This document shows positions 18,478 to 28,960 of a stretch of 64,000 bases of DNA, in pieces. The DNA comes from Octopus sinensis (taxonomy: Eukaryota). The notes beneath the pieces are model-generated. The model worked only from the letters and a program-made list of their open reading frames with translations. It did no database searches and was not told where the DNA came from. Numbering within the stretch: the first letter of the stretch is position 1; each line of letters starts with the position of its first letter. A program made the position numbers and the translations under genes. The DNA lies in assembly GCF_006345805.1 (NCBI RefSeq), contig NW_021830461.1, positions 1 through 64,000 on the forward strand, given 5' to 3'.

Positions 18478-19417
18478 TTATTCAAGTGGAGGTGGTTCAG
18501 AATTGTTGTTATAATCGTTTTTTTCAACTTTTTTGGTGTTTGGAGTTGAATGCGACGTTATGCTAACAATGTCATTCAATGAAACAGATTGAGATTTGTA
18601 TGTCGTGATATTTTTTGGCTCAATTTTTCTATTTTCATAGTTAATACTTTAATTTAAATATTTATTTTTAAAACTAAATTCTTACTTTGTGATATTATTC
18701 AACTTGTTATTGTTTTCTCTTGAACTTTTAGTTATGATATTTTCGCACTTAGGAAATATTTAGAATTGAAAATTACTTTGGGCATAGTTATACTAAGATA
18801 CCCGGATGTTTTCGAACGCTGACATGTTGATCGAGTTGGAGAAATTTCCATTCCCAAAGAAAGCTGAAATACCTATTCAAAAATATAAGAATACAATATC
18901 ATCAAAAACCTTTCCTTTAATTAAAACACGAACATATTTTGGCTGGATGTCCACATTAATTAATGAACTATCCAGATACCTTTTTGTTCGATTAGTCATT
19001 AAAAATATTACTTGTATAATTTCATATCAAGGATTAAACAATTGTCATCATCTGTCAGTTTAAAGTCAATTCTTAAAATAATATTGATACAATTTGTTTA
19101 CTTGGATTCGTTTATGTTCATAGGTCGACCGTCAGGCATAAAATATGAGCGGGGTCGTTTTTCCTTTATTTTATGTTCTAAATCTTAATCACAGATATTC
19201 AATGTACATTACCATTTGCTTTTTCTTTATCTTTTTGAATTTGTTGATGAATCCGAATTCGAGATTCCGGTGTATATTCTTCTTTTTCTTCATTACTTAT
19301 AAAATTTTTTTTTATTATAAATTACTCTGAATTTAGAATTGGCCTCACTTCTTTGCAATCAGATTTACTATTTGAATTAGACTCCAGATTTTTTTACCTT
19401 TTCTCTTTCTCTTTTTG
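18478..19417 (-). CDS. DNAAF11: Dynein axonemal assembly factor 11 (LRRC6), C-terminal half only; LRRs absent
   Basis: Spliced YTPESRIRI...[58 protein letters not shown]...RSKTSGYLSITMPK...EPPPLE stop. Confidence 0.85.
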
Positions 19418-22400
19418 CAAACTCTTATCACAATACATGTACACCAAAAAGATATATTTGACATTCTTGTAATACTGGTATTTATTAATTGTAGGTTAAA
19501 ATGCATATCCGGTCAATTAGCGATTTTGAATGGCTCAAGCAATCTAGATTTTATTTCCAGGAAGATGAAGATAAATGTATTATTTCGATTACTGATGTGA
19601 TTTTTCTTATCAAAATGAATATCTCGGATGTACAGATCGACTCGTCATCACTCCTTTAACTGATCGGTATCTAATTGACTAACTTTTAATTTCAGGTGTT
19701 ACATTACGTTGGCACAAGCTCTGGGAATGTCCTTGGGTGGAGCTCCAGCTGGACCAGCAGGAACTGGGAAAACAGAAACTGTTAAAGATATGGAAGATGC
19801 TTAGGAAAATATGTTGTTGTATTTAATTGTTCTGATCAAATGGATTTCCGTGGACTTGGGAGAATATATAAAGGCATTATTTTGAATTAGATATTTTAAT
19901 AGGTTTGGCAGAATCTGGTTCATGGGGGTGCTTTGATGAATTTAATCGAATTGAATTACCAGTCCTGTCAGTAGCAGCGCAGCAAATTGCAATTGTGTTG
20001 ACTGCCAAAAAAGAAAGGAAGCATCAATTTATATTTACAGACGGAGATGTTGTAGATCTTGACCCTGAATTCGGTCTATTTTTGACCATGGTTTTATTTG
20101 TTTATCGGTACAAAAGTAGAATCCAGGATATGCCGGTAGACAAGAATTACCCGAAAACTTAAAGATTAATTTTCGAACTGTTGCAATGATGGTACCTGAT
20201 AGAGGAATTATTATACGCGTCAAATTGGCAAGTGCAGGTTTTGTTGGGAACGTAATACTTGCCAAAAAATTCTTTACACTATATAAACTATGTGAGGAAC
20301 AACTTAGCAAACAAGTTGAAGCTTTTACTTCAATATACAGGTTCATTATGACTTTGGATTGAGAAATATTCTTTCTGTTTTAAGAACTTTGGGGGCATTT
20401 AAGAGGGCAAATCAAAATGACTCAGAACCAACCATTGTAATGAGAGTATTAAAAGATATGAATGTCTCAAAATTGGTAATAAATTTATAATACTATTTTA
20501 TTAAGGTTGATGAAGATGAACCGCTGTTCATGTCACTGATTGATGACCTTTTCCCAGGAATGCAACTTGAAAAGGCTGGTTATCCAGAAATGAGAGTGCA
20601 ATTGCTGATCAAGTAATAACATATGGTTTTAATTCAGGTCGAACAAGAAGGACTGATTTACCATCCACCGTGGATTCTTAAACTTATTCAACTGTATGAA
20701 ACACAGCGGGTACGCCACGGAATGATGGCCCTTGGTCCATCTGGATCAGGAAAGACAAATGCATCAAAGTTTTAATGAAAGCTATGACACAATGTGGCAT
20801 TGTACATAAAGAAATGAGAATGAATCCCAAAGCTATAACCGCACCACAAATGTTTGGAAGGTTAGACGTGGCCACAAACGATGGACTGATGGAATATTTA
20901 GTACTTTATGGAGAAAAACACTAAAAGCCAAAAAGGTATGGTTTAATAGATTTACAGCTTTCTAAGGGAGACCACATTGGCTAATTCTTGATGGACCAGT
21001 AGATGCAATTGGGATTGAAAACCTCAATTCAGTACTTGATGACAATAAAACGCTGACTCTTGCTAATGGAGACAGAATTACGATGTCTCCTACATGTAAA
21101 ATTATATTTGAAGTTCATAATATTGACAATGCTTCTCCTGCTACCGTTTCTCGTAATGGAATGGTATATATGAGTTCCTCTATTATGGAATGGGAACCAA
21201 TCCTAAAAGGTGTCAATAGTGTTCAATAATTTGCAGGCTGGCTGACAACAAGACCATCAAATCAAGCAGATATCATTTTTGAATGTTTAAAAAACGTTTG
21301 GTCACAATGTTTATGCTTTGTAAAACAAAATTTAGTTTCAAAAATTGAGGCATTCTTGTCATTTCTCACTTTTTAGATATTGGATTGTAATTACATTCAC
21401 CAATTTATTAATATTTTAAACGGAATGCTTCCTTCAACAGAAGAAACAAAAACTGTAACTCAAAAACAAATAGAATCAGCAATATTTTTTGCATTAATGT
21501 GGTCACTGGGATCTCTTCTTGAAATTCCTGATCGTCACAAAGTTTTTAATTTTGTAAAAAATAATTTATAGTTAGAAGAACACATTAAAGAAAATTACAA
21601 TTCGTTATCTATTCCAACATGTGAAAGCGATTCTACAATATTTGAGTATGTACCTGATAATACTGGAAATTGGGTTCATTGGGAATCTCGGGTTGTTTTA
21701 AAAATATTAAAATTTAGGTGAATCTATATAATTACCCGAAAGACAATATTCCTGAATATGTGAGCATTTTGATCCCTAATGTTGATAACATCAGAACTGA
21801 TTTTCTTGTAAATATAATTTCTAAGCAAGGAAAATCTGTTCTTTTAATTGGAGAACAAGTATATTAACGTATTTACTAAATTTTAGGGAACCGCCAAAAC
21901 AGTTATGGTTGAAGGTTACTGCAATAAATTTGACCCTGAACAGCACATGTTTAAAAGCATGAATTTTTCTAATGCAACAACTCCAATGATGTTTCAAGTA
22001 AACAAAAATAATCTAAAAATTAGAGAAATATTGAAAGCTACGTGGAAAAAAGGATGGGAACAACATACGGTCCTCCAGCAGGACGTAAAATGACTGTTTT
22101 CATTGATGATATAAATATGCCAATAATAAATGAATGGGGTGACCAGGTAATAATATTTGGTTTCAATTTTAAGATCACGAATGAAATAACTCGACAAACT
22201 ATGGAACAAAACGGGTTTTATAACCTTGAGAAGCCAGGAGAATTTACCACTATCTTAGATGTTCAGTTCATTGCGGCAATGATTCATCCTGGTGGTGGAC
22301 GAAACGATATTCCGCAGCGACTAAAGCGGCAGTTTAGTGTTTTTAATTGTACACTGCCTTCTAACAATTCAATTGATAAAATATTCAAAACAATTGGCCA

Positions 22401-28400: not shown

Positions 28401-28960
28401 TGGGAGTCGACTAGTATTGGATTTTGGTTTACAAACCTTTTGGAACGAAATGCACAGATCAATGCATGGCTATTTGGAGGCAGGCCCAAAACATTCTGGA
28501 TGACAGGATTTTTTAATCCTCAAGTGGATTTAATTTTTACTCAAAATAGGGCTTCTTAACTGCAATGAGACAAGAGATTACAAGAGCTCATAAAGGATGG
28601 GCATTGGACAATGTCTCATTGGCAAACGAAATACTTAAATATTCCAAAGAAGAAATTACCAAATCCCCCGAGGAAGGTGTGTATGTCTACGGTTTATATT
28701 TGGATGGAGCCGAATGGGACAAAAAGAATTCCAGATTAATTGAACCTCAACCTAAAGTTTTAAACACAATGTTACCCGTTGTGCACATATTTGCTACTAA
28801 TTCGGAAAGACAATCTGGAAAAACATTATACGAATGTCCTGTTTACAAGAAACCTCGTCGTACTGATTTGAATTATATCTTTGCACTATTACTAAAAACA
28901 CGCAAAGAACCAGAACATTGGATTCTTAGAGGCGTTGCAGTGCTATGCGACACGAAATAA
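19418..28960 (+). CDS. Outer-arm axonemal dynein heavy chain (DNAH5/DNAH8-like), motor half only, about 47 mini-introns, frameshifts near the 5' end
   Basis: [62 protein letters not shown]-terminus [14 protein letters not shown]. Confidence 0.93.

Follow-up and report, generated by a model that had tools for sequence, protein, structure and literature searches.

At position 19417/19418 of the window (here the whole analysed stretch, the first 64,000 nucleotides of contig NW_021830461.1 of the Octopus sinensis assembly GCF_006345805.1), the minus-strand 3' half of a DNAAF11/LRRC6 gene and the plus-strand 3' half of a DNAH5/8-type dynein gene abut. With moderate confidence, we regard this junction as the seam between two head-to-tail copies of a ~58.3-kb unit, an arrangement that the assembler most likely produced. 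That the sequence has the geometry of such a repeat, whatever its origin, is the firmer part of this reading and appears likely. Since the repeat geometry explains the junction, nothing needs to have been lost and no shared promoter is implied. A sequence-only reading had proposed that one deletion, perhaps somatic, removed both 5' halves of a divergent gene pair together with a shared ciliary promoter. This proposal is not upheld, as the 58.27-kb repeat described below accounts for the junction and errors pile up at the seam; the chimeric join that had been named as the fallback is supported.

The two gene halves and their seam

DNAAF11 is needed for the cytoplasmic assembly of dynein arms. 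The 3' half of its gene (DNAAF11/LRRC6/tilB) occupies 18478..19417 on the minus strand and consists of nine exons (19417-19398, 19367-19326, 19295-19213, 19183-19102, 19071-19012, 18979-18910, 18872-18777, 18747-18686 and 18646-18478) with GT-AG introns of 29-39 nt. It runs from 19417 to a stop codon at 18478-18480 as a single open frame of 227 aa without a start, comprising the end of the coiled coil, the CS domain and a C-terminal PPL motif. Four short ORFs in 18735-19184 matched the Pfam family CS_DNAAF11_C (PF23602) in profile order 20-120, two of them above the curated cut-off (45.7 and 32.4 bits vs 27). In all three references tried, the 227 aa aligned with residues ~224-467 of full-length DNAAF11, with identities of 98/219, 84/223 and 95/218 (38-45%). 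The missing ~225 N-terminal residues correspond to the LRR, the LRRcap and most of the coiled coil; the N-terminal LRRs and the LRRcap are absent within the window. A suspected frameshift or lesion near 19395 was discarded, since the TAA at 19394-19396 (minus strand) falls inside the 30-nt intron 19397-19368.

The plus strand from 19418 to 28960 encodes a putative outer-arm dynein heavy chain of the DNAH5/8 (gamma) type, as judged by Pfam, PDB best matches and spliced alignment. About 2,735 aa are present, spanning the linker end, AAA1-6, the stalk and the C-terminal domain (Pfam AAA_6, AAA_7, MT, AAA_9, Dynein_heavy and Dynein_C), and the best PDB matches are a 4,730-aa chain, human DNAH5 and a gamma outer-arm chain. 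By these domains and best matches the predicted protein is of the DNAH5/DNAH8 outer-arm type, and Pfam, PDB and alignments thus bear out the identities that the sequence-only reading had given to both genes. The spliced, frameshift-aware alignment begins at base 19418 with all seven full-length DNAH5/8 references (68-74% identity). Compared to P0274, the half covers residues 1868-4603 of 4603, with 73% identity over 2,715 aligned residues to the C-terminus, while the N-terminal tail and linker (~1,870 aa) are absent within the window. The coding sequence is split by 47 introns of 25-34 nt (median 28 nt).

The seam cuts both genes within an exon, with neither gap nor spacer between the halves, and the window contains no gene start for either of them. 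Spliced alignments and tblastn of the window confirm the earlier observation that both genes lack their 5' halves and meet at ~19417 without gap or start. The expected FETLIT is indeed altered at the junction: homologues carry [FYL]ETL[IV]T, the window has QTLIT, and the column of the E>Q change is otherwise invariant in the alignment to full-length DNAH5/8 references. The seam therefore lies within a few bases of 19417-19420; we placed it at 19415..19420 (no strand), intact alleles being needed to fix the exact base and any microhomology. A tblastn search of the window with seven dynein tails, eight LRR halves and the N-terminus of P0002 (a public protein model, see below) gave one chance match (E 0.94), and the tails and LRR halves in this search also rule out nested or interleaved 5' exons within the window. 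Direct or inverted repeats at the seam were rejected, as only scattered 10-12-mers in low-complexity sequence were found. A 3' splice site was likewise rejected in the T-rich run preceding the dynein, as this run is DNAAF11 coding sequence (QKEKEK) and has no AG. The term "head-to-head" fits the truncated ends only and does not imply divergence of the intact genes. In a search of sequencing runs, parts of 18400-21400 were present in 8 of the 17 listed rows, from four studies, with a best share of 0.80 (X1), and none of these 17 rows was an RNA run containing part of this region; the run search was not used as evidence.

The short introns agree with the dicyemid-like host that had been considered before: the median dynein intron of 28 nt compares with a median of 27 nt in Dicyema sp. 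(PMC6543705), and intron size is what suggests this taxon. The DNAH5 of a chromosome-level octopus genome (P0288) is only 70% identical to the window dynein, which is therefore not the octopus's own gene. A protein from the organism itself was not among the best 150 of 229 matches to the dynein junction exon in 1.84 billion representatives (top identity 84%), and a search with the dynein read through in one frame gave no near-identical protein among the best 120 of 630 matches.

The 58.27-kb direct repeat

Two segments of the window form a direct repeat. Copy A (865..5725, plus strand) carries GST_C_6, Erv26-like and IPP-transferase genes, of which we take the GST_C_6 gene to be metaxin-like; copy B (59135..64000, plus strand) reaches the last base of the window. 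Both copies have the same orientation, are 99.7% identical and recur with a period of 58,270-58,275 nt (58.27 kb), of which 4.9 kb of repeat are visible before it runs off the window. Differences are concentrated at one end: 12 of the 13 differing columns fall in the first 954 bases of copy A and one in the other 3.9 kb. Compared to copy B, copy A has three -1 homopolymer deletions in 865-1818, one of which shifts an exon of the GST_C_6 gene. Six of the eight substitutions are transitions, which argues for genuine haplotypes or genuine duplicates.

The 3' end of a non-LTR retrotransposon (2..864, plus strand; the class label comes from reading of its ORF) abuts copy A and may be an insertion in unit 1 only. 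With such an insertion, the visible left edge of copy A would not mark the duplication breakpoint, and the repeat probably continues to either side. The rest of the duplicated unit (28961..59134, no strand) contains, according to Pfam, YTH (30277-31029), aminotransferase class I/II (40267-41859), Ets (44509-45015), LSM (50412-50774) and MeaB (57594-58841) genes besides many transposon fragments; these genes are unrelated to cilia. The IPP-transferase gene of copy A lies at 4291-5371.

Several diverged copies of one type of non-LTR retrotransposon with a C-terminal nuclease-like motif are present in the window (2-864, 13672-14109, 36056-37565, 44032-44241 and 53849-54496). Within 15325-17162, a hAT-like transposon piece (98.6% identical to 8059-9442) precedes three inverted tandem segments of 37 nt, after which 362 nt from the end of the piece recur in inverted orientation; this fold-back may be either abortive repair or another assembly join. 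Just 3' of the dynein, 29552-30257 holds MITE-like inverted and direct repeats with arms of 94-130 nt and a 32-nt core that occurs three times.

A head-to-tail tandem duplication has one seam per period, and the genes at its ends are whole in the flanks and truncated to halves at the seam. If these end genes are convergent, their 3' halves lie back to back at the seam. A tandem repeat must have one seam between homologous points of its copies. The 19417/19418 join is the only gene-cutting join found between the copies of the 58.27-kb direct repeat and has the orientation that the tandem-repeat geometry requires. The coincidence of the left edge of the repeat with the 3' end of the retrotransposon further supports the seam. 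The likeness to a tandem duplication breakpoint is one of geometry, with only 4.9 kb of the repeat visible here.

We propose that the true order would be the dynein 5' half, the unit (dynein 3' half, pointing right, YTH to MeaB, GST_C_6, Erv26-like, IPPT and so on to the DNAAF11 3' half, pointing left) and the DNAAF11 5' half. The dynein and DNAAF11 would then be convergent, their 3' ends separated by ~48 kb and by at least eight unrelated genes. A single long read or a few of them, chimeric or from a rare molecule, may jump from mid-DNAAF11 back to mid-dynein, after which the assembler would traverse the unit twice with slightly different haplotypes. In the window, unit 1 would finish at 19417 and unit 2 begin at 19418. 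A whole dynein would lie left of the window, with the break near -38,900, and a whole DNAAF11 right of it, with its 3' half near 76,750-77,700 and the LRR exons just beyond. The flanking whole genes, a low read depth and the origin as an artefact are the parts of this model that we infer.

Clustered errors beside the seam

An error-rich zone lies directly beside the seam (19598..21013, plus strand), with five single-base homopolymer deletions and, at 21013, a W>G exchange in a column that is otherwise invariant. The dynein frameshifts near 19598, 19791, 20591, 20756 and 20881 are all -1 in homopolymer runs and lie less than 1.5 kb from the seam, all of them among the first 1,275 of 8,208 coding bases; the next 8 kb has none. 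All seven references gave the same five frameshifts, and one reference adds a sixth at 20977. Such clustering has a p of 9e-5 at the seam end (about 1e-4) and of 1.6e-3 for any span that tight, and the density of homopolymer runs is equal near and far from the seam. The cluster resembles an uncorrected long-read consensus from few reads, an error pattern that points to thin read support. There are no in-frame stops in the ~2,735 dynein codons, which indicates that the halves are pieces of working genes and not old wreckage. Old pseudogenes were likewise dismissed as an explanation, since the errors are clustered, whereas decay would spread and include stops. An artefact is further supported by copy A, which, like the dynein near the seam, has -1 homopolymer deletions beside its edge. 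Against an artefact, the 227 codons on the DNAAF11 side of the seam are free of frameshifts, and this asymmetry would not be expected from a simple coverage ramp; the transition-rich substitutions between the two copies also speak against it.

False duplications are associated with heterozygosity, with erroneous k-mers and with joins that lack support (Ko et al. 2022, PMC9516828), and dicyemid DNA is reported to be 1.24% heterozygous and 49% repetitive (PMC6736024). The window resembles the false (heterotype or homotype) duplications in long-read assemblies of the former study in having near-identical copies on one scaffold with haplotype-level differences, sequence errors and a join that makes partial, chimeric genes. 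However, in those cases the joins are often gapped and are diagnosed by read depth and k-mer multiplicity, while the join in the window is gapless and clustered homopolymer errors serve as a proxy (PMC9516828).

Public protein models

A protein search with one DNAAF11 exon identified two proteins among three candidates, P0001 and P0002, both named 'protein tilB homolog [Octopus sinensis]' and located on a 279,002-bp contig. Over residues 68-196, the sequence of P0002 equals that of the window DNAAF11 exons, and the GCES...LEHF block of its upstream LRR exon aligns to LRR residues ~86-117 of all four homologues. As P0002 is an automatic model with a single convincing LRR exon, first ~35 residues that align poorly and a transposon-derived tail, it does not prove a whole DNAAF11 gene. 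P0001 is a second, 5'-truncated DNAAF11 copy that begins in transposon sequence and shows two differences among 102 exon residues. One contig therefore carries the 3' half twice, together with at least one co-linear LRR exon, as the duplication geometry predicts. Of the missing 5' parts, for which a search had been suggested earlier, one LRR exon is thus present in P0002; none lies in the window, and the protein matches listed included no dynein of this organism, whole or cut. If the window is part of the 279,002-bp contig, P0001 and P0002 belong to the same assembly and are not independent evidence; if that contig is an independent assembly, the two DNAAF11 copies would favour a real duplication.

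Both models borrow exons from retrotransposons. They match short-intron, dicyemid-like DNA and not ordinary octopus DNA, and the record seems to hold sequence of a dicyemid-like parasite. A metagenome scan with P0002 gave 238 pattern matches, of which none was confirmed.

Origin of the junction

The geometry would be the same if the repeat were real, namely a recent ~58-kb tandem duplication in some of the sequenced individuals that arose by non-homologous joining. Both genes would stay whole, and the seam would leave two promoterless halves. All geometry evidence applies equally to this explanation, the copies differ by transition-rich substitutions (6/8) and a retrotransposon, and P0001 is not identical to the copy in the window. 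Thin coverage would also result if the duplication were a minor allele in a pooled sample. The seam of a fixed duplication, however, would be unique and well covered instead of bearing five homopolymer errors, and the contrast between 3.9 kb with one differing column and 954 bases with 12 is a pattern of haplotype mixing and shared polishing. On balance, we regard a real duplication as unlikely.

Less likely still, and in our view improbable, is an unrelated chimeric join or inversion breakpoint, with the 58-kb repeat as a separate event. The error cluster at the seam would fit such a join, the window has another complex join in the fold-back at 16700-17162, and an inversion between two co-oriented genes also yields back-to-back 3' halves. 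However, two independent events would be required in one 58-kb interval, and a simple inversion would place the LRR exons on the opposite strand, while in P0002 they are co-linear with a 3' half identical to the one here.

The deletion of the 5' halves and the shared promoter of a divergent DNAAF11-dynein pair, in the germline or in somatic cells, we consider very improbable. The junction alone is compatible with it and both genes are ciliary; chromatin elimination is reported for dicyemids (Noto et al. 2003, as cited in PMC6543705), and an intact allele elsewhere could supply the LRR exon of P0002. Nevertheless, a deletion leaves the 58.27-kb repeat unexplained, is opposed by this LRR exon upstream of an identical 3' half, and does not account for errors that cluster at the seam. 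Dicyemid somatic cells are ciliated (PMC6854800) and so need both genes. Linkage was compared, by eye, in the 14 species common to the lists of best matches (120 of 144 for DNAAF11 and 120 of 630 for the dynein, with paralogues missing), from which two without contig sizes were excluded. Among the matches listed, none of the remaining 12 animals had DNAAF11 and a DNAH5/8 on equal-sized contigs, so that there is no sign of linkage or of a conserved DNAAF11-DNAH5/8 pair in them, and our literature search found no paper joining LRRC6, DNAH5 and "bidirectional promoter". The divergent ciliary pair that had been proposed is probably not real.

Slightly less credible still is that the seam closes a ~58-kb extrachromosomal circle that was excised or amplified somatically, with the assembly looped by a read from this circle. 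Such a circle would produce an identical seam along with the apparent direct repeat and the thin read support, and both of its ends would lie within genes transcribed in ciliated cells. The host is dicyemid-like, and developmental circles and selective amplification are described for dicyemids (Noto 2003 and Awata 2006, as cited in PMC6543705); the review PMC9292451 makes no mention of dicyemids. However, the circular contigs reported in PMC6543705 are <500 bp or have a median of 702 bp, two orders of magnitude below 58.27 kb, and known circles are mostly <1 kb and largely non-coding or mitochondrial, so that 58 kb with many genes is outside the class. Excision would also break two genes that ciliated cells need and remove housekeeping genes, and there is neither a signal nor a repeat at the seam. 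The least probable of all readings, and highly doubtful, is that such a multi-gene circle of ~58 kb is recurrent in ciliated dicyemid somatic cells, with its ends in two co-expressed ciliary genes that come together during transcription.

Our preferred reading is a seam between head-to-tail copies for which the assembler is most likely responsible. On this reading the contig contains one stretch twice, which makes any gene counts, truncations or gene neighbourhoods taken from it unsafe. Both genes are probably whole nearby, without a shared promoter. If the recurrent circle were true, the junction would be the first nuclear breakpoint to be mapped for somatic rearrangement in dicyemids, with a circle ~100x larger than the reported circles, and would provide a PCR-testable handle on how this rearrangement affects nuclear genes.
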